The notes under the pieces: generated by a model
The model's database searches: none
What the model was told of the DNA's origin: nothing
Seen by the model: only the letters and a program-made list of their open reading frames with translations
Program-made: the position numbers and the translations under genes
Part shown: positions 1,448 through 62,163 of the stretch, piece by piece
How the letters are laid out: every line of letters begins with the position of its first letter
Position numbering within the stretch: position 1 is the first letter of the stretch
Virus record (IMG/VR): IMGVR_UViG_3300045988_101018
Span: 61,635 to 125,634 of that record
Origin: a virus
DNA length: 64,000 nt
Reading direction: 5' to 3' (one strand)

Positions 1448-1565
1448 AATGGTGCATATAAATTTATTTATATATAAATTAAAAGTTCTACAATTTTGAA
1501 TATTAGAAAACACATTTTATGTTACAATATTAACCATATTTATAAACTCTAATGACCAAGGAGGT

Positions 1566-2402
1566 ATGTCTATGTACGAAGTGCCTTGTTTAAATCTTAA
1601 CGGAGACACAATTAATAGATTCTATCAATGGGACATAGACCAGAAGATAGTTATCGACCTTAATGGATGCGATGAGAGATATCTTCAGAATCCACCTGAA
1701 GTACATTTCTCTAATTCAAGTAGGAAAGAAGCGTTGGTTGTTCGCTCTACTGTAAAATATAGTGGTGATGATGTAGCTGTTCAAGATGACAGTGTGGCAA
1801 CAATGCACGCAGGAGATATCATTATTGCCGATATTCCTAATATTCTATTGCAGGAGCCTTATCCTCTACTTGTCTATGTATATTTAACTGACGCAGATGA
1901 TTCGTCTTCTCAGAAAACAATTCTATATAGTGAGATCCCTGTTCGTAAACGTGCAAAGCCAAGCGATTATCTCTACGTTGAGAATATTACTCGCATTACT
2001 GCCGAGATGATTAAAAAAGAAATTGAATCTAGCACCGAGACGGCTAGAACAAATGCCATTAACGAGATTAATAACGTTAAAACAGAGTCTATAGCTACTG
2101 TTACAGATACAAGAGATGCTGCTGTAAATACCATAACACAGACTAAGACAAACGCCGTTAGCACTGTTGATGAAGCCAAAGAAGGCTTTATCACCACTGG
2201 CAACGCCCTTGTTAATACCGCCACTGAGATTAAGAATAATACTCAGAAGACATATGATAATGCCGTTTCTGTTGCAAATAAGACTCAGCAGACTATTGAG
2301 ACAAACATAAACACGCTCATCACAAAGAACGGCGTGTATCTTAAGACTGTTAACGATGGAAGCGGCAATGCAAATCTTGCCATTCTCGTAAACCAATCAT
2401 AA
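1566..2402 (+). CDS. tail-fibre-associated structural protein (Asn/Thr/Ala-rich repeat region, C-terminal LVNDGSGN motif)
   Basis: 278 aa; RBS AAGGAGG upstream; repetitive N/T/A-rich segments; paralogous C-terminus with next ORF. Confidence 0.6.
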   Translation: MSMYEVPCLNLNGDTINRFYQWDIDQKIVIDLNGCDERYLQNPPEVHFSNSSRKEALVVRSTVKYSGDDVAVQDDSVATMHAGDIIIADIPNILLQEPYPLLVYVYLTDADDSSSQKTILYSEIPVRKRAKPSDYLYVENITRITAEMIKKEIESSTETARTNAINEINNVKTESIATVTDTRDAAVNTITQTKTNAVSTVDEAKEGFITTGNALVNTATEIKNNTQKTYDNAVSVANKTQQTIETNINTLITKNGVYLKTVNDGSGNANLAILVNQS

Positions 2403-2417
2403 AGGAGGTGCGATGAT

Positions 2418-2885
2418 ATGTCAACTGCCTATCATGTTGAAACTATCGAGCGCATCACCGAGCAGATGTTGACAGAGGAAGTAATCAGCGATGTAAACAA
2501 GATAATGTGGGACGCAGACACACAGGTTAAAAAGATTAAAACTGATGCTGTTAATGAGATTGAAAAAATTACTCCCGAAGCTGTCAATACAATCAACAAA
2601 ATTGAACAAGATGCTTTAAAGTATATTGCCAGTGAAAAGCGGGATATGATTTTCACTTTGGGTGAGAATGATGCCGATGGTAATCCAGCAGTAAGGGGCA
2701 AACTGCGCAAAATTGATACTGATACTACTGCGATATATAATAAGCTTCTTGATGTCGCTCCCAATACAGAAGCAAAGATACAGCAAAATATAAGAATTAT
2801 GATTGTTAATGATGGTTATGCTATTGAGCTTGTAAACGATGGCAGTGGAAACATTGCCGTTAATTTAGCAAGGAGGTCTGTATAA
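2418..2885 (+). CDS. tail-fibre-associated protein, paralog of preceding ORF (C-terminal ELVNDGSGN motif)
   Basis: 155 aa; RBS AGGAGG; shares VNDGSGN C-terminal motif and repeat character with 1566-2402. Confidence 0.55.
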   Translation: MSTAYHVETIERITEQMLTEEVISDVNKIMWDADTQVKKIKTDAVNEIEKITPEAVNTINKIEQDALKYIASEKRDMIFTLGENDADGNPAVRGKLRKIDTDTTAIYNKLLDVAPNTEAKIQQNIRIMIVNDGYAIELVNDGSGNIAVNLARRSV

Positions 2886-2889
2886 AAAT

Positions 2890-3711
2890 ATGGATGGAAA
2901 TAAGATAATGAAATCCCTTGGCGGTCTTGAGGTGTATGACGAAGCTTGCAGACAGCGCGTTGTAGGTATTACAAGTGCTGGCACTGGTGCTGCATATACT
3001 GCTGCCGTTAAGGCAATTGAAGTTCTTTCTGTTGGTGCTAACTTTGTTATGGTGCCACATGTTACTAGCACTACTACTGCGCCAACATTAAATGTCAATG
3101 GTCTTGGCGCGAAGAATATTAGGATACGTATTTCTAGCTCTCCTAAATCTACTATTCAGCTGCCAAGTGAAGATTTCCTTACAAACGGCAAGCCAGTAAG
3201 ACTTATATATGACGGTCAATATTGGATTGTAGATGATATGGTTCAGCCTAATGCCAATGGCCTATACGGTACTGTTCCTGTGGCTTCTGGTGGCACTGGT
3301 GGCACAACTGTTGAAGAAGCCAGAAACAACTTGGGTCTTGGAAATACAAGCGGTGCTCTGCCTATTGCTAATGGCGGTACTGGATGTACAACACTTGCAG
3401 ATGCTAAGAAGCTATTTAGCGTAGCAGATGATACTGGTGTCATTCCAGTATCGAGTGGCGGCACTGGTGCCAAGACCGCTGCTGATGCTAGAACGAATCT
3501 CGGTATTACTCTTGCCAATATCGGAGCCGCTGCAAGTTCTCATAAGCATGATGCTTCAGATATTACAAGCGGCGCTCTTGCTATCGAGCATGGTGGTACT
3601 GGTGCAACAAATGCGAAAGCTGCCTTGAATAATCTCGGTATCAGATGGGGTAAAGATAAAGCCGAGGATTCTGGTACACCGAATACCATCTATATTCAGT
3701 TGCTTGATTAG
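2890..3711 (+). CDS. tail fibre protein with repeated GGTGxT...A(R/K)xNLG(I/L) motifs
   Basis: 273 aa; at least 5 copies of the GGTG[AC]xT..A..NLG repeat typical of phage tail fibres. Confidence 0.75.
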   Translation: MDGNKIMKSLGGLEVYDEACRQRVVGITSAGTGAAYTAAVKAIEVLSVGANFVMVPHVTSTTTAPTLNVNGLGAKNIRIRISSSPKSTIQLPSEDFLTNGKPVRLIYDGQYWIVDDMVQPNANGLYGTVPVASGGTGGTTVEEARNNLGLGNTSGALPIANGGTGCTTLADAKKLFSVADDTGVIPVSSGGTGAKTAADARTNLGITLANIGAAASSHKHDASDITSGALAIEHGGTGATNAKAALNNLGIRWGKDKAEDSGTPNTIYIQLLD

Positions 3712-3723
3712 GTGGTGATGTAG

Positions 3724-4557
3724 ATGGCTGTTGACAAATATGGTGGCGAAGATACGCACTCTTATAGCTGGGGTACTGGCACAAGCCAAGCATATGTATG
3801 GGCTGAAGTGACAAATAAAGACGATGATACATCTTATGTACATGTAAAAGGATGTGTTTCATCTAAAGGCAATTATAGAATTAGTCAATATGGTGTTCAT
3901 GTTCAATCTGGACAAAATGGGTCTAATCAATGGACTGACACAACCGCCGTATTTGACTATAATAATTGGGTCGGCAATATTGATAGCACATGGGAAGTAG
4001 CCCGTGGAAAAAACGATAAAAGCGTAAATTGTTGGACTAAGTATTGGGGAGAAAAGGTAGGCGGCATAGGCGCTGGTTCTTGGGCTGGCAGTGTATCTGT
4101 AGATGTTACAGTTCCAAAACGTCCATATCATGAGCATGGAACCCCAACTTTAACAACTATAAAGACAACCGCACACTATGGCGAAACCATAACATTGTCT
4201 TTTGCCAAAAGTGAAACACAGGGCAACGCAAACTTTAAGCGCTTTGAATTATATCAAGGAACTACTAAGCTATATAGTGGTACTGATACAAGCTATACAG
4301 TTACACCTTCTGATGTCACTGGTGTAGTAGGTGGTACTGCAACATATACTCTTAAAGAAGTGCATGAGTGGTATGATGAATACCCGTCTAAAGAAACCTC
4401 AATATCTATTAAGGTACAGTCTGGTGTTGTCACTATATATGATGAGAATAGGGTAAAGCACGTTGGTCTTGTCACAATGTATGATGAGCAGCGTGTCAAA
4501 CACTATGTATTGATTACTGCATATGACGAAAACGGCAAGGCTCATAATGTGGTATAA
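3724..4557 (+). CDS. tail fibre / receptor-binding protein (putative)
   Basis: 277 aa; position in fibre operon; C-terminal near-duplicate segments (VTIYDENRVKHVGLVTMYDEQRVKHYVLITAYDENGKAH). Confidence 0.5.
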   Translation: MAVDKYGGEDTHSYSWGTGTSQAYVWAEVTNKDDDTSYVHVKGCVSSKGNYRISQYGVHVQSGQNGSNQWTDTTAVFDYNNWVGNIDSTWEVARGKNDKSVNCWTKYWGEKVGGIGAGSWAGSVSVDVTVPKRPYHEHGTPTLTTIKTTAHYGETITLSFAKSETQGNANFKRFELYQGTTKLYSGTDTSYTVTPSDVTGVVGGTATYTLKEVHEWYDEYPSKETSISIKVQSGVVTIYDENRVKHVGLVTMYDEQRVKHYVLITAYDENGKAHNVV

Positions 4558-7806: not shown

Positions 7807-8538
7807 CTACTCCTCCTCGCCTGTAATCAATTCTGAATATGGAAGTGTTTTGATCCAGTCGCACAACGTATGCCACTCATTAAGCTTATGGTTCTTGCGA
7901 GACTTATACATGTTCGCAAGAACCTCATAATTCAGCATGACAGTGCGCTTCTGATTATACGAGCTAGGTAGAAGCTGAATCATTTGCCACCAATATTTTT
8001 TATCTTTCGTCTCAAGATAGGCGCTTCGATATTTGTTCAAGCCTTCAATGGTTAATTCGAGAAGATCTTTTGGCCAGATGGTAGTAGCATATTTAAAATA
8101 TGTGTAGTGTTCATCATCCGCATAGGGCTCGGCGACAAGCCTATCATTATCCGAGTCTTGGTCTGGATTCTCAGCCAAATGCTCATGACTAAAATCATCA
8201 ATAGTAAACTCTTTAGCCTGAATCTTATGCATTGTGCTGCAAGAGTTTGCGACTGTGCCAACCTTGTAAGTATCGAATTCCTTCCACCAGTATAGCGGAG
8301 CTGTGATATCGCAATACACAGTAATCATACGAAGATACTTACGATGGTCTGTGCCAGCATTGCGAAGGCGCTTCATAAGATTCAAATCGTTATTGCCGAC
8401 TTCAAATACGCCCTTATATGAATCTCCACCATAATACTTATATTCGCTGTCGCTCTTAGCCCAAGAGTTCATTGGGTTGCGCATACCACGAATAGCGGGT
8501 TCCAATCCACATATCTCGGTCTTTTCAATTTTCAGCAT
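7807..8538 (-). CDS. hypothetical protein in nucleotide-metabolism cluster
   Basis: 243 aa ORF; weak overall resemblance to ThyX fold but RHR-x7-S catalytic motif not found. Confidence 0.5.
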   Translation of the reverse strand: MLKIEKTEICGLEPAIRGMRNPMNSWAKSDSEYKYYGGDSYKGVFEVGNNDLNLMKRLRNAGTDHRKYLRMITVYCDITAPLYWWKEFDTYKVGTVANSCSTMHKIQAKEFTIDDFSHEHLAENPDQDSDNDRLVAEPYADDEHYTYFKYATTIWPKDLLELTIEGLNKYRSAYLETKDKKYWWQMIQLLPSSYNQKRTVMLNYEVLANMYKSRKNHKLNEWHTLCDWIKTLPYSELITGEEE

Positions 8539-45064: not shown

Positions 45065-45179
45065 TACATATATTAAACACAATTGCTTTCGCGTTAAGAT
45101 TTCAAGAACGCATTCTCTACTTTCACATAGCCGAAACTATCCGTCTTTCATGGGCTTAAACCAAGGCTATTCAAACAAG

Positions 45180-46420: not shown

Positions 46421-46506
46421 TGGCGGAGACATTGGGAATCGAACCCAAACTAGATTGCTCTAGGACACCTTAGCAGGGTGCTGCGCTACCTTTACGCCAT
46501 GTCTCC
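46421..46506 (-). tRNA. tRNA-Ser (anticodon GCU), type II with long variable arm
   Basis: cloverleaf folded by hand: acceptor GGAGACA/TGTCTCC, anticodon loop CUGCUAA, T-loop GGTTCGATTCC, CCA encoded. Confidence 0.8.
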
Positions 46507-46596
46507 TTCGTTGCGGGGTGCGTTGCCAACTACACCACATGTCTTTTGTAAAATAACATAATAATAAGCACATGGCTACTTATTTTCCGTCTATAC

Positions 46597-46680
46597 TGAG
46601 ACACGTCTGGACTCGAACCAGAGACAGTTGAGCCGTTATCATCCATGAGAATCTGGCTTTATCGTGATTATATCCACGCC
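46597..46680 (-). ncRNA. tRNA-like 3' fragment (T-arm TCTGG-TTCGAGT-CCAGA plus acceptor-like strand) with no matching 5' acceptor; preceded by extended -10 promoter TTGACATTGTATAAT
   Basis: T-arm consensus present but no cloverleaf could be completed; possible degenerate tRNA or small RNA. Confidence 0.3.
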
Positions 46681-46720
46681 CCGATTATTATACAATGTCA
46701 ACTATGACAAGAAAAAATCA

Positions 46721-46796
46721 TGGAGCCGATGACAGGAATCGAACCTGCAACAGACTGATTACAAATCAGTTACTCTACCAATTGAGTCACATCGGC
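46721..46796 (-). tRNA. tRNA-Thr (anticodon UGU)
   Basis: acceptor GCCGATG/CATCGGC, anticodon loop TTTGTAA, T-loop GGTTCGATTCC, CCA encoded. Confidence 0.8.
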
Positions 46797-46815
46797 AATT
46801 GTGCAATTGATTGTG

Positions 46816-46889
46816 TGCGCTATGTAGGATTCGAACCTACGACCTACAGATTAGAAGTCTGTTACTCTATCCAGCTGAGTTAATAGCGC
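46816..46889 (-). tRNA. tRNA-Arg (anticodon UCU)
   Basis: acceptor GCGCTAT/ATAGCGC, anticodon loop CTTCTAA, T-loop GGTTCGAATCC. Confidence 0.8.
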
Positions 46890-46940
46890 ACACAATCAAT
46901 TGTTGTATATAAAAGATATTATATCATATCTTAATATATC

Positions 46941-47025
46941 TGGTAGGGAAGAAGGGATTCGAACCCTCACGCTCTATGAGCAAGAGATTTTAAGTCTCCG
47001 ATGTCTGCCATTCCATCACTTCCCC
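46941..47025 (-). tRNA. tRNA-Leu (anticodon UAA), type II
   Basis: acceptor GGGGAAG/CTTCCCT, anticodon loop CTTAAAA, long variable arm, CCA encoded. Confidence 0.8.
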
Positions 47026-47031
47026 GAGTTT

Positions 47032-47106
47032 TGGTATCGGCTACGGGAATCGAACCCGTGTTTCCACCTTGAAAGGGTGATGTCCTAACCGTTAGACGAA
47101 GCCGAC
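47032..47106 (-). tRNA. tRNA-Glu (anticodon UUC)
   Basis: acceptor GTCGGCT/AGCCGAT, anticodon loop CTTTCAA, T-loop GGTTCGATTCC, CCA encoded. Confidence 0.8.
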
Positions 47107-47109
47107 ATT

Positions 47110-47195
47110 TGGTGCCGCATCTAGGTAACGCTCCTAGCCAGTCATAGACATTGGATTTACAGTCCAACCCTCGTCTTTAAAGGATTACTGCGGCA
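47110..47195 (-). tRNA. tRNA-Tyr (anticodon GUA), type II, non-canonical T-loop (AGCGTTA)
   Basis: perfect 7-bp acceptor TGCCGCA/TGCGGCA, anticodon loop CTGTAAA, CCA encoded; D- and T-arms atypical. Confidence 0.6.
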
Positions 47196-47197
47196 AT

Positions 47198-47274
47198 TGG
47201 TGGACACAGTAGGATTTGAACCTACGACCTTATGCGTGTAAAGCATCTGCGCTAACCAGCTGCGCCATGCGTCC
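47198..47274 (-). tRNA. tRNA-Val (anticodon UAC)
   Basis: acceptor GGACGCA/TGTGTCC, anticodon loop TTTACAC, T-loop GGTTCAAATCC, CCA encoded. Confidence 0.8.
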
Positions 47275-47275
47275 G

Positions 47276-47351
47276 TGGTGGGGTCGGTGGGGGTCGAACC
47301 CACGACCTTGGGATTAAAAGTCCCCTGCTCTTCCAACTGAGCTACAACCCC
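47276..47351 (-). tRNA. tRNA-Lys (anticodon UUU)
   Basis: acceptor GGGGTTG/CGACCCC, anticodon loop CTTTTAA, T-loop GGTTCGACCCC, CCA encoded. Confidence 0.8.
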
Positions 47352-47355
47352 GTTA

Positions 47356-47430
47356 TGGTGGGAGATGAGTGAGTCGAACACTCTTCAATCCGTTATAAGC
47401 AGACTGCCCTAACCGTTGTGCTAATCTCCC
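47356..47430 (-). tRNA. tRNA-Ile-like with anticodon UAU (AUA decoder) - unusual
   Basis: acceptor GGGAGAT/ATCTCCC, anticodon stem GTCTG/CGGAT with loop CTTATAA, T-arm GAGTG-TTCGACT-CACTC, CCA encoded. Confidence 0.6.
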
Positions 47431-47461
47431 ATAGCCATTACAATAGACGGTAATATATCGT

Positions 47462-47547
47462 TGGCAGTGACAAGATTTGAACTTGTATACAGGAGCTACC
47501 TGTTTTGCCCATTAAAGCATAGCGTATACCGATTTCGCCACACCGCC
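47462..47547 (-). tRNA. type II tRNA-like gene (Leu/Ser/Tyr-class architecture) with unresolved anticodon arm containing UUUAAUGG (possible 8-nt loop)
   Basis: acceptor GGCGGTG/CACTGCC, T-arm ACAAG-TTCAAAT-CTTGT, variable arm ACAGG-TAGCT-CCTGT; no standard 5-bp/7-nt anticodon stem-loop could be drawn. Confidence 0.5.
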
Positions 47548-47560
47548 AAGTCACATTACC

Positions 47561-48700
47561 GTCTATGGAATATATACTTTTCAAGCATGGTCTATATGCT
47601 CTTAGATCGATTCTGGCAATAAATCTGTTCATACCATACAACAACACGCAATGATAATATATACTCCATAGACGGTGGTAGCTTACTAAAGTCCTCACCA
47701 ACTACCAGAGGGGTCACTTATTTTAAATACCGTCCGCGCTGGCAGACCTTCCAACGCTACCGATTTTACGCAACGGTGTACGCTTAACAGTCCGCTTCCT
47801 CCGTTAAGACAAGGGGTAACATTACGCCGTTACCATGCGCCCAAGACTTGTCAGGTAGCTATCTCCATCGTAAACCTTGGGACTAAGCGTTAACGGAAAA
47901 TACGTTTGAGTTAAATTGGAGCAACCATGAAACCAAAACAGAAAGGAGCCATTGTATTTTCCGTCTGCGGAATCGTACCGCACCATCTGTATCAGCAAAG
48001 CAACCAAAAACCTAATACAGAATCGAACCTCGCTTTGTCGGTCAAGCAAACCAACGCGAAAGATTGTCTCAGGCCTTCGCCTTACCTTCATAAAACGTAG
48101 TGGTAATTCGGTCACATAGGAAATGGAGCTGAGACACAAGGAGCGACCTCGTATCTTTCCATCCCAACTTGCGTCAATCTATGGCTGGATTGGCTACCAA
48201 CAACTTTCACCCACCATTCAGCATATTAATCTTCTATACTATCCAAATTTGGGCTACTCGTACTCACGTCTGGTCTTATAGCTGATTACCAGCATCAATT
48301 GGACAACTATCTTGTGGCACTCCAAGCGATTGGCATAGCTGCCACACTATCCTCTACTTGGTTCAATGAAGTGCGTACCTCATATCTATTGCGATAGCGA
48401 CCAGTTAGCGATACCATTTTCTTGCGTTTCATCACAGCACCGTGTCTGCCCTCAGTTGAGATTTTCCATCTCTCCTGCCCTTCTAAAGATGTCAGTTACC
48501 TGCATCAGGCAAAGCCTACCTATAGGGTATCCTCTATAGTGGAACTCTTTGAACACGTCCATGACCCAATGGAATTTGGAATACACATGGTTGAAACAAT
48601 CCTTCGCGTTGATTTCTCAACGCTGATACTTTATGCAAATATCAAGGTGCAACTGGAAACTTCCGTTTCTCTGTGTCAGATATTATAGCATCTAACTTTA
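47561..48700 (-). ncRNA. ~1.1-kb ORF-poor, GC-richer region adjacent to tRNA array: candidate large structured ncRNA (ROOL/GOLLD-like?); strand not determined
   Basis: only short random-looking ORFs; 18-bp near-perfect inverted repeat 47569-47587/47650-47668; composition differs from flanks; context typical of phage large ncRNAs. Confidence 0.35.
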
Positions 48701-49350: not shown

Positions 49351-50292
49351 CTAAGAAGAGAAAATATCTATATGGCCTTTGACCATTTCCCTGAAGTTAC
49401 GCACTGGCGTATCGCACATGCTGCGCTTCAATTCATCTGAAATTATTCCATTCACTTTTCTATCCTTGTTATTATCCGCAAAGGCATCTTTGATATTTAT
49501 CCCGCACTTGTCTAATTCCAATGTTATCCTGTGCATTATTCCGCTCACATATATCTGTAGCGGCAGCAGATTATATCCAACATAGTTCTTAGATATATTC
49601 CGCAATAGCCTATAGTAACTGAACCTATAGGAATATTCCGAACTGCCTTTGCGATTCTCCACCTTGAAACAGCTGTCTTCATGCAATCCGACTATTGGTA
49701 TCTTGCATGTCCCATACCTGTTCCGTCTTTCCCATATATCAATTTCGCTCAGCTTAATCAAATCATCGGCTAATTTTTCCGATATAGATATATCATACGG
49801 CTCGCCATTATCGGGCTTTAACGTTGCTCCATCCCACCATATATTTTCCGCTCTAAGGTTTTTCACAACGCTCATATCATCATTATAGACACCTTCATAT
49901 AGGCTTCTAAACAATGTCTGTATATAAAATCCGTTATAGTCCTCATACATTCCTATATCATGGTATATCTTTTCAAACTGCGCATTGGAAATAAATTTCT
50001 TAGAAGCATTTGGTTTGGCTAATGACCAAAGAATATTCCGATCCAAATCATTCAACATATATTCCATATCTTTATTGCCAAGATATTTGGCATACAAACC
50101 AAGGATATATATAATAGTCGTTATAGCCTTTGGGCTATTAGGATTCATTCCTAATATAATATTCTGTAAATCAACAGGTGTGCAATTTGAATAATCATAT
50201 TCGCCTATAACACATAATGATTTAGCCACCTTTGCCGTGTTATCGGAATCAAATGTCTGTATAAAGTCATCAAAATTTTTCCGCAAAGACAA
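49351..50292 (-). CDS. hypothetical protein (313 aa)
   Basis: long ORF downstream of Int3; no recognised motifs. Confidence 0.5.
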   Translation of the reverse strand: MSLRKNFDDFIQTFDSDNTAKVAKSLCVIGEYDYSNCTPVDLQNIILGMNPNSPKAITTIIYILGLYAKYLGNKDMEYMLNDLDRNILWSLAKPNASKKFISNAQFEKIYHDIGMYEDYNGFYIQTLFRSLYEGVYNDDMSVVKNLRAENIWWDGATLKPDNGEPYDISISEKLADDLIKLSEIDIWERRNRYGTCKIPIVGLHEDSCFKVENRKGSSEYSYRFSYYRLLRNISKNYVGYNLLPLQIYVSGIMHRITLELDKCGINIKDAFADNNKDRKVNGIISDELKRSMCDTPVRNFREMVKGHIDIFSS

Positions 50293-50595: not shown

Positions 50596-51405
50596 TTAGA
50601 TAAAATCGTAACCAAGCTCAAGACTGTCGAACACGTCTTTGATTTCATCGTCCATAATGCCGATGTATTTTCGTGTAGTAGCCACGCTGCTATGATTGAA
50701 CACATAGCTTAGAATGACAAGCGCCTTGTCCTTATCTTCCGCATCATGCCACGCCCTAAAGCCGAATGATTTCCTCAAGGAATGGCTACCGATATTCTGA
50801 TTGATCCCAGCTTCCTTGGCTGCGCTCTTAACGATACGCCAAAGGGTAGTAGCCGCAATAGCACCGTCACCCTCACGGGATTTAAACATATACTCGTTTA
50901 AATTATCCACAGGAAATTCATTAAGGTACTCTACGACAACCTTCTTGACAGTGTTATTAAAGAACAGCTTAACAAACTTCTTCTGCTTGCGTGTTTTTTT
51001 AGGTTGCAAAGTATAGAAGTCCTTAAACTTATACTCCCCGTCCTTAACGCAGTCCAAGAAGAAACTCCATTTAAGCGTAATCAAATCGCTTGCACGCAGA
51101 CCGACATTGATGCCGATAACGAACAGCAACTTATTCCGACTGGCAAGCTGACGATGATGCTCATCGGTGGCTTCATTGATATGCTTGTCAAACACATCAA
51201 TCATAGACTTAATCTCTTCATCGGTACGGAAAGCATACACCTCAGAAGATACACCAGCAGGCTTTAATCCGCCGCTATTATCACGAGCCTTCGGACTTTT
51301 GGGTTTAACGTCTTTGGTGCCTATGATAACGCTAAACGGAATGATATTGTTCTGCTGCTTTTCTTCCACAACAACTGGCGCAAATGCTGGACTAGCCATT
51401 ATCAA
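50596..51405 (-). CDS. tyrosine recombinase (Int3), short form
   Basis: 269 aa; GLRASD (Arg), HSLRKSFG (HxxR), SVATTRKYIGI (Tyr); preceded by GTAGTTATCAAGTAG motif. Confidence 0.75.
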   Translation of the reverse strand: MIMASPAFAPVVVEEKQQNNIIPFSVIIGTKDVKPKSPKARDNSGGLKPAGVSSEVYAFRTDEEIKSMIDVFDKHINEATDEHHRQLASRNKLLFVIGINVGLRASDLITLKWSFFLDCVKDGEYKFKDFYTLQPKKTRKQKKFVKLFFNNTVKKVVVEYLNEFPVDNLNEYMFKSREGDGAIAATTLWRIVKSAAKEAGINQNIGSHSLRKSFGFRAWHDAEDKDKALVILSYVFNHSSVATTRKYIGIMDDEIKDVFDSLELGYDFI

Positions 51406-51555: not shown

Positions 51556-51774
51556 TTATTCTTCTAAATCAAGATCCAACTTATTCTTTTCAAACTTAAT
51601 ACGAAACTCGCCATTTGCAAACTGTCGCATAAGAATCTCTAGCACCGTATTCATAGAGAAACCAACCTGTTTGCAATAGGCACTGAAAGCGTCTTTAACA
51701 TCCTTGTCGATGGTTGTATTGAGTACAACCTTATTGTTTTCCACCATGCTAATCCCAATCCTCGTCACGCACAC
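51556..51774 (-). CDS. ribbon-helix-helix protein (RelB/DinJ/CopG-like) paralog 1
   Basis: 72 aa; LNTTIDKDVKDAFSAYCKQVGFSMNTVLEILMRQFA matches RHH antitoxin/repressor pattern. Confidence 0.55.
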   Translation of the reverse strand: MCVTRIGISMVENNKVVLNTTIDKDVKDAFSAYCKQVGFSMNTVLEILMRQFANGEFRIKFEKNKLDLDLEE

Positions 51775-54321: not shown

Positions 54322-54549
54322 TTATAAGTTGCACCAAAAGTCATCTTCGGTAAACTCTGTACCGTGGTAAAGATTGTACATCAGCCAATCTGGAATATCC
54401 GTGGGGTATGTCGCGCTTGCCAAAACATTACGCTCCGTTGCAATCATCGGCGGCAACGCTTCTTGATTGTAGTAAAAATCAGTATACAGCTTGTCTTTAA
54501 GCTCATACATTTCATCATCGCTAAGCTGTTCAACCTTCATGGTAACCAC
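54322..54549 (-). CDS. small hypothetical protein
   Basis: 75 aa ORF. Confidence 0.4.
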   Translation of the reverse strand: MVTMKVEQLSDDEMYELKDKLYTDFYYNQEALPPMIATERNVLASATYPTDIPDWLMYNLYHGTEFTEDDFWCNL

Positions 54550-54583
54550 CTTTCTAAGTCATTGTAGTACGATTTAAGACACG

Positions 54584-56615: not shown

Positions 56616-56799
56616 TTCTGCTCCTTTTTTCCGAGCGCCTTTCCTTGACTACATATTACCAAAGATTTATTCCATATAGCCGAGAATCTTTGTCTACATA
56701 TCTTCTCCACGGATCCTCCACATTTATGTGTGTTGCAAATGTCTGATATTTTCCGACAATCGAAACAAAAAGCGCCCACAATAGGGCGCTTATATTGCA

Positions 56800-57432: not shown

Positions 57433-57517
57433 TGCGATTCCTTCCGTCTGGTTTGCTCCATGGCTTAATAATATCACGATTATGGCTACAACATATTTTC
57501 TCCACATAATTTTCCAC

Positions 57518-57548
57518 AAAAGAAAAGGGGAGCGGCTATGCGCTCCCC
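57518..57548 (-). terminator. rho-independent terminator (GGGGAGCGC...GCGCTCCCC + U-run on minus strand)
   Basis: read directly. Confidence 0.65.
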
Positions 57549-58322: not shown

Positions 58323-58470
58323 ATTCCACAAATAATAATCAAAGTGTGGAATATCTTTAACTTGTCCACAAAAAGCGTGGGAAACTCGCAAAAGTATCTC
58401 ACTTGTCCACACTTTCCGTGGACAACCATACCAAAGTAGGGTGAGTTGTCCACGTTTTTTGTGGAAAAAT
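58323..58470. repeat. cluster of TTGTCCACA / TATTCCACA DnaA-box-like 9-mers arranged as inverted repeats
   Basis: cttgtccacaaaaagcgtgg, cttgtccacactttccgtggacaacc, gttgtccacgttttttgtggaaaa read directly. Confidence 0.45.
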
Positions 58471-58762
58471 GAACATTCCTAACAAAATAGATATAATACA
58501 AAATAGATAAATATGCTTCGCAAGATTTTTCCGTATCAGTATATATAAGAAAATAAAAAAGGGCGGATAATTTTCCGTCCTCATATGATACTTTTCTTAT
58601 CTTGTCTTTGGTCGTGTATTTTATGGTCGTGTACCCCACTTTCAAAAGGGTCGATTTAAAGGCTTAGAGCGCGTTATTTACCCATATTTGCCCCGATAAG
58701 CACTCGACCCTAGTAAGTACCCATATTAAAAATACAAAGGCAAATAAAGCGTTTTATCGCGT

Positions 58763-59024: not shown

Positions 59025-59121
59025 GACTGCCCCAATCTCTAGCAGGTTTTAACTTAATATAAATATATCATATGCTTGCCATGTATGTAGGTTATTCATA
59101 TAATCTACATATTTATATTGA

Positions 59122-59398: not shown

Positions 59399-59545
59399 TT
59401 TAGGTGCCTTCTTTCTGCTCGGCTTTGCTTTACTTGTCTATATAATACCTAATATCTATTCTATATTGTCGTGAATGTTTTACTTCACAAAGTCTACACA
59501 TCTATATCGACAAAAGAAAAGGCGGTATCTCTACCGCCTTAATCT

Positions 59546-59713: not shown

Positions 59714-59874
59714 CTTCTTACCCTTCTGCTATTGTCAACCCATCGGGCTTATCCCCTTTGGTTGATATTATTATTGCACTGATAGAGTCTATGAGTATCG
59801 AGAATCTTTAACTTCACAAAGTCTACACATATCAATGGTCAAAAAAAGACCGCCTAAATATAGGCGGTCTAGCT

Positions 59875-60455: not shown

Positions 60456-60689
60456 TTTGTACCGCCTTTCGTTTGGTTTCTTTCGTTGATTAGATATTAC
60501 CATGCTTTACTTGTCTCCATACCATCTTCACAAAATTATATCCAGACAAAAGTTTCTAATGGTTAACTAAAAAAATAGACATAACTGTAGCTCAATAAAT
60601 AAGTCATTATGAGTGGCGTATGTAGGTCGCTTTGTCCTCCCGACTAGTTACATAATACCATACTTTTAGGTTGTGTAAGTGTGATCTAC

Positions 60690-61150
60690 GAACTCCATAA
60701 TTTCTCCACAAATGAACACACAATAATATAATTCCGTATAGGCTGTCAATAGATTTTCCATGTTGATTTTCCAACCATAGAACCTCCATAATCTTCCGCG
60801 CTAGTCTCAAATGTTCCGCTATCTTTTCCGACTAGTCCGATAACATTTATCCGTATAAGGCACTGCAAGGCGATTTAAGACGTGGTTTTTTCCGCGCCTT
60901 GTCCGACTAGGGACTATCGTTTTTCCATGCCTTAAAACGCATTTGGTGGGCTTGTTTTTTCCATGCTTGCTAGATTTTCCGTAGTTCTTCCGTGGTGTGA
61001 GTGTCTAGTTTGTCCAGCAAAGTGTTATCTTTTTCGTAGTATTTTCCGTAACGTGTGCGTAGTTTATCCGTAATGCGATTATTCCAGTAGCATTTTTCCG
61101 TATTATTTTTCGTGATATGGTTTTGTTTTAGTAGCATTTTTTCCAAAAAA
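60690..61150. repeat. array of >20 degenerate TTTTCCGT / TTTTCCAT / TTATCCGTA / TTCTCCACA motifs (DnaA-box-like), no credible ORF
   Basis: motifs counted by eye; AT-rich, ORF-track hits look spurious. Confidence 0.45.
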
Positions 61151-61174
61151 AAAGAGCGGATATTTAATCCGCTC
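61146..61174 (-). terminator. rho-independent terminator (GAGCGGAT...ATCCGCTC + U9)
   Basis: read directly. Confidence 0.65.
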
Positions 61175-61182
61175 AATTTTTC

Positions 61183-61344
61183 CTAGCCGAAAATATGCCA
61201 AACATCCGCAGGGTATCCAGTTGCTAGGCACACCAAAAAGCAAAACAACCTAACCGCGATTATTCCAACGAAACCCCAGAAAACCCCAGTCAAAACCTCC
61301 TTGCCGCTTTCAGTGCTTGCCCAGTCTGCAATTTTCCGAAACAT
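61183..61344 (-). CDS. small membrane protein (~53 aa, MFRKIADWASTESGKEVLTGVFWGFVGIIAVRLFCFLV...)
   Basis: RBS GGAAAGGTGA before ATG; one TM helix. Confidence 0.4.
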   Translation of the reverse strand: MFRKIADWASTESGKEVLTGVFWGFVGIIAVRLFCFLVCLATGYPADVWHIFG

Positions 61345-61399
61345 TTTTTCACCTTTCCAGTCTGTTTCGCGTACCACTCTATTTTAGCGCGTTTTGATA

Positions 61400-61700
61400 T
61401 TTTCCAGCCTATGATTTTCCAGCGCGTCAAATCTCCACAAATGCTCCACGGTTTCTCCATATTCCAGTCTAGGATTTTCTCCATGAAACCTCTACAAAGA
61501 TTCCATAATTCCTCCATCAAAGTTCCACGAAACTTCCATCAAAGCTCCATAGCTTTTCCATCAGATGCACATAAAATCTCCATCAAAGTTCCATAGATTC
61601 TCCACATTTTCTCCATAATTATGGATCCTCCACAATGTCTACATATTTTCTCCACAGCTTCTCCATGAAAAAATTACAGAATCTCCATAACTTTTTCCAT
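61400..61700. repeat. phased array of TCCA(T/C) motifs at 11-bp (and 22-bp) spacing over ~24 helical turns
   Basis: TCCA start positions 61434,61445,61456,61502,61513,61524,61535,61546,61557,61579,61590,61601,61612,61651,61662,61684,61696 measured from sequence. Confidence 0.6.
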
Positions 61701-61731
61701 AAAAAAAGGGGAACTCGGGATAGAGTTCCCC
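61701..61731 (-). terminator. rho-independent terminator (GGGGAACTC...GAGTTCCCC + U7)
   Basis: read directly; immediately downstream of gene 61741-62163. Confidence 0.65.
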
Positions 61732-61740
61732 TAATTCTAG

Positions 61741-62163
61741 CTAGTATTCGGGTTCCTCCCAATACCAGTAATGTATGGTCGCTTCATTCATGATAGCACA
61801 TGCAACATCGGTTGCCGAAAAATCGCTATTGTCGTCAATGTCGGTGTGCTCGTATATGTCTTTTGCGATATGCTCCACAACGTCAAGATATTTGCCGCTA
61901 TCGTCCTCGATAGTTTCGTTATCGCGGACAAAATCAAGCATATGCTCATATGCAACGCTACTACCAGCGTTATACCAGTCGCGTTTGATGCACATATTCA
62001 TGATGCACCTTGGTGACGTGTTCCAGCAGTAGTGACGCAGCGCGTTACGTGTAGTGTTCATGATTGTACCTTTCTTTTTGGTGGTTGGTTGGTTGGTTGG
62101 TTGATAACCCACAATACGGGCGCACGGTAGTAGTTTTAGATAGCGTAGTAAATATACGTCCAA
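61741..62163 (-). CDS. hypothetical protein (GC-richer module); leader carries (AACC)6 tract
   Basis: 140 aa ORF; probable start MNTTRNAL after ACCAAAAAGAAAGG. Confidence 0.45.
   Translation of the reverse strand: MDVYLLRYLKLLPCARIVGYQPTNQPTTKKKGTIMNTTRNALRHYCWNTSPRCIMNMCIKRDWYNAGSSVAYEHMLDFVRDNETIEDDSGKYLDVVEHIAKDIYEHTDIDDNSDFSATDVACAIMNEATIHYWYWEEPEY
62063..62087. repeat. tetranucleotide microsatellite (GGTT)6 in the 5' leader of gene 61741-62163
   Basis: ggttggttggttggttggttggtt read directly. Confidence 0.8.

Follow-up and report, generated by a model that had tools for sequence, protein, structure and literature searches.

The right-hand end of a 64 000-nucleotide stretch of viral DNA (IMG/VR record IMGVR_UViG_3300045988_101018, positions 61,635 to 125,634 of that record; hereafter 'the window') carries an array of short repeats built around the tetranucleotide TCCA, and the locus raises the question of what such an array is for and which protein, if any, would read it. 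Judged from its sequence, the array is non-coding and consists of phased sites to which a protein would bind cooperatively, and we tentatively propose that it forms an expanded operator-like platform for a regulator of the phage, probably an MrpR-like repressor. The array and its longest single-register block are located as follows.

Positions 61403..61699, minus strand: the array, with about 23–27 head-to-tail 11-bp units (from sequence, Tandem Repeats Finder (TRF) and autocorrelation).
Positions 61480..61622, minus strand: the longest single-register block, 13 consecutive 11-bp units, 11 with TCCA and 2 degenerate (from TCCA positions).

On the minus strand the repeated unit reads t-R-TGGA-R-a-w-w-n (examples are ATGGAGAAAAT and GTGGAACTTTG), corresponding on the plus strand to TTYTCCAYA followed by 2 bp. 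TCCA occurs 22 times within 61401–61700 versus about 1.6 times expected (window mean 5.5 per kb); the 17 starts listed in the original prediction were all found to be right, and five more are present, at 61403, 61418, 61463, 61480 and 61629. The triplet TCCA-N7-TCCA-N7-TCCA was found seven times, always inside the array, and not once in 100 dinucleotide-preserving shuffles, and across the 64-kb window TCCA was the sole 4-mer forming an 11-bp chain of at least five. The predicted 11-bp periodicity was also borne out by base-identity autocorrelation, with peaks at lag 11 (0.423 versus 0.277 ± 0.025, z 5.8), lag 22 (0.450, z 6.7), lag 33 (z 5.2) and lag 44 (z 4.5), and with no signal at lags 10 and 12. 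TRF gave periods of 11, 22 (score 81) and 44 (score 126) with the best scores at 22 and 44, and a 22-bp doublet was taken from TRF and autocorrelation as the strongest period of the array.

The regularity is less strict than had been claimed. Spacings of 11 or 22 bp dominate, as stated, but make up just 14 of the 21 TCCA spacings rather than nearly all of them, and the register breaks five times, with array positions modulo 11 running 1, 5 / 10, 10, 10 / 6 / 1 (13 units) / 7, 7, 7, 7 / 8. The two degenerate units of the 13-unit block read TCTA (at 61491) and CACA (at 61568). Because of these breaks the longest in-register run covers about 143 bp and not 24 turns, and they also account for the modest Rayleigh power of the full 310 bp. 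The helical repeat of DNA is 10.5 bp per turn, against which a period of 11.0 bp drifts, and the idea that all sites face one side of the helix over some 24 turns was in both respects overstated.

We compared the array with its counterparts in related phages, using nine related contigs with a homologous array that were collected from IMG/VR by pattern and protein searches (3300045988_094709, _095267, _072261, _126380, _127807, _126970 and _098468, 3300030093_000028, and a ninth contig cut inside the small gene downstream of the array). A first scan for 5 × TCCA had given mostly unrelated tandem repeats among the matches listed, and megablast and blastn of the region against the INPHARED phages gave no match. 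In the window, the immediate neighbours of the array are these.

Positions 61741..62061, minus strand: the gene upstream, encoding an acidic ORFan protein of 106 aa for which no family was matched (PHROGs, Pfam).
Positions 61707..61732, minus strand: intrinsic terminator of the 106-aa gene, with a 10-bp stem and a T7 tail, directly after which the array begins (terminator scan).
Positions 61381..61386, minus strand: conserved TAAAAT/TACAAT, the candidate −10 box inferred for the small gene (read from sequence).
Positions 61183..61344, minus strand: coding region of a small membrane protein (53 aa, single-pass, MFRKIADW...), in constant linkage with the array (open reading frames (ORFs), relatives).
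Positions 61154..61174, no single strand: terminator after the 53-aa gene, with T-runs on both strands (terminator scan).

The membrane-protein gene, correctly noted in the original prediction as flanking the array, starts about 60 bp beyond the array end, and the module of terminator, array, small gene and second terminator is constant in the nine contigs. The upstream gene comes in two unrelated forms, the 106-aa gene being swapped for an unrelated gene in relatives L128, L136 and L298. Two CTGGAAAAT units precede the candidate −10 box, which has no good −35, and the sequence upstream of the array gave no promoter. Between about 6 kb and 62 kb the minus strand holds almost all genes, and PHROGs and Pfam searches with the neighbouring genes gave nothing useful on function.

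Within this constant frame the array itself varies mostly by whole units. The terminator-to-start interval holding it ranges from 300 to 391 bp among the relatives, array length differs by −66, −67, −22 and +24 bp, and an alignment of six relatives showed indels of 11, 22 and 44 nt. ORFs of 60–80 aa overlap the array, and a coding reading was ruled out by the indels between relatives (11, 22, 44 and 66 bp), which break every frame while maintaining the register within blocks; the array is thus non-coding, as first supposed. A position weight matrix (PWM) was built from 105 units, with TGGA fixed by construction. The base preceding TGGA was A or G in 89 of these 105 units (85%) and never T, the following base was G or A, and 57 units read TGGAG, with spacers that differ.

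It is here that a functionless slippage repeat has to be considered, as unit number does change in slippage-like steps; against this, spacers have diverged while the core and the within-block register were kept in nine contigs, which argues for selection. Another way to account for the array would be a different host regulator with 10–11-bp direct repeats, such as an OmpR/PhoB-type winged-helix protein or AbrB, and taken together with slippage we regard this as improbable. Sites of the Pho-box type have an 11-bp period. The array shares with Pho boxes and other OmpR/PhoB sites not only that period and a conserved core of 6–7 bp with a 4–5-bp A/T-rich spacer, but also units in place of a poor −35; in contrast, 2–6 units are found there versus more than 20 here, the units match no known consensus, and a regulator of this type was not identified. 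AbrB recognises TGGNA pairs (PMC3025583). It was tried as a candidate and rejected, since those pairs need to be 4–5 bp apart (A/T) and are 6 bp apart in the array, where TGGAG prevails (57/105).

The array could also act at the level of RNA, with minus-strand units of the form GGAG-N5-RUG serving as tandem Shine-Dalgarno/start-codon-like or GGA sites, either in a leader that loads ribosomes or has a stabilising effect, or as a sponge that takes up CsrA or another GGA-binding protein. Most units do read ATG or GTG, with GGAG placed 5 nt ahead of the next RTG, and the minus strand has a minimum free energy well below that of shuffles (z = −3.95). The terminator directly upstream of the array, together with the lack of a promoter there, nevertheless speaks against transcription through the units, and RNAalifold scored covariation at −0.33 for six relatives, in which a single pair was compensatory; as covariation is this weak, the fold of the minus strand reflects the repeats themselves, and the RNA-structure reading was dropped. 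Rfam searches (gathering and E-value thresholds) found nothing in the array, a CsrB match covering the terminator only (13.6 bits), and the strict absence of 1–2-nt indels within blocks is unneeded for such roles. We consider a function in RNA very unlikely.

The unit is not confined to the array. When the window was searched with the PWM for tandem pairs outside it, these were found on the minus strand only and at 56.7–60.7 kb only, with none on the plus strand and none in the shuffle. They form elements of two to three units ahead of other early genes, each closely following a terminator or a promoter-like site, as listed here together with related elements.

Positions 60689..60710, minus strand: two-unit copy TGTGGAGAAAT TATGGAGTTCG (the second unit begins TATGGAG), just after a TTGACA/TATTGT promoter-like site (PWM).
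Positions 57495..57518, minus strand: two-unit copy TGTGGAAAATTA TGTGGAGAAAAT, behind a terminator (PWM).
Positions 56690..56722, minus strand: three-unit copy TGTGGAGGATCC GTGGAGAAGAT ATGTAGACAA (the third also given as ATGTAGAC), behind a terminator (PWM).
Positions 59483..59501, minus strand: dispersed element ATGTGTAGACTTTGTGAAG, behind a terminator (motif scan).
Positions 61637..61646, minus strand: within the array, a variant unit ATATGTAGAC resembling SPBRE, the SPβ repressor element described below, replaced by GTGGAGAT in three relatives (alignment, motif scan).

On the plus strand the copy at 57495..57518 reads TTTTCCACA and TTCTCCACA, 3 bp apart. An identical copy of ATGTGTAGACTTTGTGAAG lies at 59812–59830, and a variant starts at 59112 (minus strand). 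The pattern AT[AG]TGTAGA was found six times on the minus strand (five early intergenic or in the array, one at 45071) and never on the plus strand, with equal strand-specificity in every relative; in its AT[AG]TGTAGA(C/T) form it is followed 11 bp further by TGAAG or TGGAG, one such copy lying in the array at 61646. The site orthologous to 60689..60710 reads TGTGTAGA in relatives L009 and L122, and orthologous sites (60710 and 61646) exchange TGTGGAGA and TGTGTAGA between relatives. Array unit and dispersed element therefore belong to one family, and the array would be an expanded copy of a small operator-like element. The TGTAGAC element was also tried as a sigma-A −10 box and rejected, since the interchangeable GGAGA form loses key −10 bases.

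The recurrence of the unit before several early genes is the behaviour of an operator family and not of a single centromere, and this bears on the reading favoured in the original prediction, namely a partition centromere of parC or tubC type in a plasmid-like prophage. The likeness to R1 parC (ParMRC; ten 11-bp iterons bound by the ribbon-helix-helix protein ParR) lies in the 11-bp direct repeats beside a promoter (lag-11 z 5.8) and in the cooperative coating by a small DNA-binding protein that would be expected by analogy; the nearest cultured relative by DnaE is moreover the Clostridioides phage pCD1602_4, the name of which suggests a plasmid-like element, and a weak RelB-like ribbon-helix-helix ORF lies 10 kb off at 51556–51774. 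What follows the array is, however, the 53-aa membrane-protein gene with its terminator and not a parM–parR operon, the window holds two integrase genes, and the motif is dispersed as small elements. No ParA, ParM, TubZ, ParR, Rep or AbrB domain was found in window ORFs of at least 60 aa with Pfam and PHROGs, a scan that covered the 64-kb window of a genome of about 130 kb, with NrdD, DnaE and spurious ORFs of the tRNA and ROOL region left out. This agrees with the earlier remark that no partition ATPase is visible. The more general proposal of cooperative protein-binding sites stands as far as the sequence shows, while the comparison with parC and tubC centromeres does not, and such a function appears very improbable.

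Iterons of a phage replication origin, read by a phage-encoded initiator, would be somewhat easier to accept, although we still hold them to be unlikely. Direct repeats in a large non-coding early region with further repeat families would suit such an origin, and in two unrelated phages (L142 and L155) the same units lie just upstream of a primase-helicase/polymerase gene. The neighbours of the array are nevertheless ORFans with no initiator gene adjacent, 30 kb separate the array from the helicase, primase and organiser-like genes, the window scan gave no Rep family, the unit is scattered before several genes, and no DNA unwinding element (DUE) was identified. As to repeat families in this region, relative L121 carries further ones (ATCAAAGAYATA and AACCCCCCATATAACGTTC) in a 1.8-kb non-coding region leading from a yonO-like block to the early genes.

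As to a possible binder, the lineage of the phage is SPβ-like: a relative has a YonO homologue, and the window encodes a protein of the MrpR/SroF fold. Past the right end of the window, L121 has the 1.8-kb non-coding divergent region followed by the 966-aa YonO homologue (43.6% identity to SPβ yonO), with further matches in Clostridium, Enterocloster and Thomasclavelia phages. This layout is like that of SPβ, where yonO and yonP are followed by a non-coding gap and then by yonR, yonS, yonT etc., the small genes after the gap often having their own annotated stem-loop, and yonT encoding a 58-aa toxin. The window protein in question is the following.

Positions 49351..50292, minus strand: candidate binder of 313 aa, with a repressor fold of the MrpR/YopR/SroF type, which is tyrosine-recombinase-like (homologues, structure model).

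This protein has 463 homologues, a large metagenomic family, most of them with precomputed Pfam PF22823, which a scan of SPβ YopR showed to be MrpR_C_cat. Its AlphaFold (AF2) model (pLDDT 89) had as top matches in the Protein Data Bank (PDB) MrpR (8a0a), YopR (8bpz and 8bj6) and the DNA-bound phi3T SroF (9rd5, TM 0.67), and the MrpR/YopR/SroF structures ranked above Cre and other recombinases.

In SPβ, MrpR (YopR) is a recombinase-fold master repressor, and the SPBRE elements that it binds precede about ten early genes, with the small toxin gene yonT among them (PMC10516654). We derived SPBRE from seven SPβ promoter regions as ACAAAAAATATGTATA, which has the 10-bp core AAAATATGTA in common with GAGAAAATATGTAGAC of the window, in the TGTAGA variant only. 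SroF reads a 24–26-bp box as a monomer via successive major grooves (bioRxiv 10.1101/2025.11.27.690993), a length close to that of the 22-bp doublet. The SPBRE/MrpR system and the present one would agree in an SPβ-like lineage with the MrpR-fold protein encoded by the same phage, in an element that keeps one orientation and precedes several early genes, one of them for a small membrane protein or toxin, in an operator length of about 24 bp that matches the doublet, and, for the TGTAGA variant, in the AAAATATGTA core.

We therefore favour, still tentatively, a model in which the array is a much enlarged version of an operator-like, strand-specific element of this temperate phage with 11-bp units T-R-TG-[G/T]-AGA-n3, of which some two dozen lie between the terminator of an early gene and the weak promoter of the 53-aa membrane-protein gene. 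The most likely binder would be the phage's own MrpR/YopR/SroF-type repressor (49351–50292), which, placed on successive 22-bp doublets, could silence the membrane-protein gene during lysogeny and stop read-through, while the many weaker sites might let the array serve also as a reservoir setting the repressor threshold. Both the identity of the binder and the effect of binding are here inferred.

Several observations weigh against this assignment. The known MrpR and SroF boxes are single and long with near-complete base readout, and no short-unit arrays are described for them (bioRxiv 10.1101/2025.11.27.690993); in SPβ and phi3T each site is a single long box read by a monomer, where the window has at least 20 tandem short degenerate units, and SPβ at 50–100 kb, including its early region, is without an 11-bp array. 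The GT of the SPBRE-like core is GG in most array units, and the repressor gene lies 11 kb away from the array. BLASTP of the recombinase-like window proteins against SPβ YopR and YopP found no significant similarity, hhalign of the 313-aa protein against YopR was collinear over 215 columns but marginal (E 0.0098, probability 4%), and tblastn of the 313-aa protein against INPHARED phages gave no match. Finally, the same GTGGAGAAAAT units are present in L142 and L155, which are unrelated phages, and hmmsearch found no MrpR-like ORF in the approximately 11 kb of their sequence that was covered, which suggests a binder supplied by the host.

In those phages, 4–5 units of GTGGAGAAAAT or GTGGAGATTTT lie just upstream of the large primase-helicase/polymerase gene (L142 9185–9240, L155 9682–9740, and also L156). 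Near the repressor gene of the window, the 72-aa ORF at 51556–51774 (minus strand), in which the RelB-like ribbon-helix-helix match was sub-threshold (E 9e-4), stands upstream of an integrase-family ORF (50596–51405) and of the MrpR-like gene, in an order that recalls yopO–yopP–yopQ–yopR of SPβ.

A host protein that could bind such an array is DnaA. The units would then be degenerate DnaA boxes, the 9-mer TTYTCCAYA plus 2 bp repeated head-to-tail, on which host DnaA-ATP could polymerise as on low-affinity oriC arrays, with the array acting as a DnaA-dependent phage origin, as a DnaA sink or as a sensor of the host replication state. We consider this a possible yet doubtful explanation. The best array units, TTCTCCACA at 61598 and 61648, agree with TTATCCACA at 8 of 9 positions, TTTTCCACA and TTGTCCACA occur in neighbouring elements, and 8 of the 28 boxes of the window (at most one mismatch) fall within 57.5–61.7 kb. 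The arrangement also fits, being head-to-tail with 9 + 2 = 11 bp (12 bp at 57518/57506), and E. coli DnaA prefers box pairs 2–3 bp apart (PMC11317965). Like low-affinity oriC arrays and double DnaA boxes, the array thus has degenerate head-to-tail 9-mers with a 2-bp gap in one orientation, with TTCTCCACA and TTTTCCACA as the best units; unlike them it is five to ten times longer, has 3–5 mismatches in most units, keeps TCCA fixed and does not adjoin dnaA or a DUE.

Searches beyond the window gave this explanation some further ground. The pattern TATCCACA-N3 x3 (typically TTATCCACAGG x3–6) was found in at least 120 IMG/VR contigs of at least 66 unrelated flank groups with GC contents of 30–67%, with an arbitrary control pattern giving 0 loci in IMG/VR, and some canonical 11-bp arrays of TTATCCACA contain in-phase TTGTCCATA units. 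We found no paper with the tandem canonical DnaA-box sequence. For TCTCCACA-N3 x3, 8 viral (IMG/VR) and 24 genomic loci were found, counts that prove little because they come without a matched 8-mer control. Seven perfect TTTTCCACA boxes, including pairs at a distance of 11–12 bp, are present in L297, a distant relative, L121 carries arrays of TTTTCAACA, and the G/T swap between relatives falls at position 5, the free position of TTWTNCACA.

The units themselves, on the other hand, are hardly closer to a DnaA box than chance would have them, as 7 of the 22 have at most two mismatches to TTATCCACA compared with 57 of 328 random TCCA 9-mers of the window. Counted against TTATCCACA or TTWTNCACA, two units have one mismatch, five have two and 15 have 3–5, the central units having 4–5. 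Conservation peaks at position 5, and position 8 is T in most units, which runs counter to the requirements of DnaA. No array unit is a canonical box, whereas phages with such arrays use perfect ones. For all 24 genomic TCTCCACA arrays a DnaA signature is missing within 8 kb, and helicase, primase and polymerase are supplied by the phage itself. The bolder proposal, that the array is a phage template for a host DnaA-ATP filament acting as sink or sensor, and an extreme degenerate member of an undescribed and widespread class of 11-bp DnaA-box arrays, we find rather unlikely.

A number of other box-like clusters were seen in the course of these searches. An inverted-repeat cluster at 58357–58473 holds TTGTCCACA/G and TTTTCCACA, both DnaA-box-like, within an implausible ORF with a TTG start; in relatives its copy (L121 6809–6970) lies in the divergent non-coding region by the yonO-like block. 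The TTTTCAACA repeats of L121 number about 13 copies of (A/C)(G/T)TTTTCAACA at 11–12-bp spacing (8090–8270), just past the right end of the window. The boxes of L297 (9480–9660), read as TGTGGAAAA and including one inverted pair, occupy a 1-kb non-coding stretch upstream of an MrpR-like gene. Canonical arrays, TTATCCACA(G/A)N x3–6, are found at IMG/VR loci L004, L041, L066, L074, L084, L089, L112 and L182–L294. Two cyanobacterial genomes (L160 5200–5400 and L164 about 4250–4450) have in common an intergenic cluster by a PD-(D/E)XK nuclease gene, with TTCTCCACA x3 at 11 bp flanked by TTTTCCACA and TTTCCACA, which may be an origin-like DnaA-box cluster.

The operator-like platform and the DnaA array would carry different implications. 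Should a repressor of MrpR/SroF type bind, the array would be the first multi-site 'super-operator' for the newly described recombinase-fold repressors, which are so far known only as monomer readers of single long boxes, and it would suggest titration-based control of a small toxin-like membrane gene in SPβ-like phages of gut Firmicutes. Should DnaA bind, phages would template DnaA filaments, linking this array to the many canonical 11-bp-phased DnaA-box arrays in phage contigs, and if that class is true, phages would read or manipulate the replication-initiation state of the host through such arrays.

Two further repeats adjoin the module of array and small gene. Directly upstream of the ribosome-binding site of the 106-aa gene lies a (TTGG)n microsatellite (62078–62103), with 6.8 copies in the window and more in L065, the length of which may vary. 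Beyond the terminator of the small gene lies a looser field of one-orientation motifs.

Positions 60730..61150, minus strand: looser field of ten YGGAAAA motifs, all in one orientation (motif scan).

In this (A/T/G)CGGAAAA field the spacing is irregular; L122 has about 48 copies over 1.8 kb (1544–3300), with none on the opposite strand.

As for the wider genome, the DnaE-type polymerase of the window has 45–50% identity to those of pCD1602_4 and of large Bacillus siphophages, and a DnaB-like helicase, an ORF resembling a primase (by eye) and nucleotide-metabolism genes are present along with the two integrase genes. The Clostridioides phage pCD1602_4 (L124–L126) has only a different 11-bp array, GACATCATTCA x6 at 54489–54555, which lies in an AT-rich intergenic region ahead of a very short ORF with a promoter-like site, and is unrelated to the array of the window; in the more distant relative L296 the repeats were ordinary promoters and tRNA arms alone. 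The window further encodes a full-length ROOL RNA (RF03087, 288 bits) at 48052–48614 on the minus strand, adjoining an array of nine tRNAs at 46421–47548 on the same strand, one of which (47460–47548) is odd in having a two-base anticodon, 'aa', according to ARAGORN.

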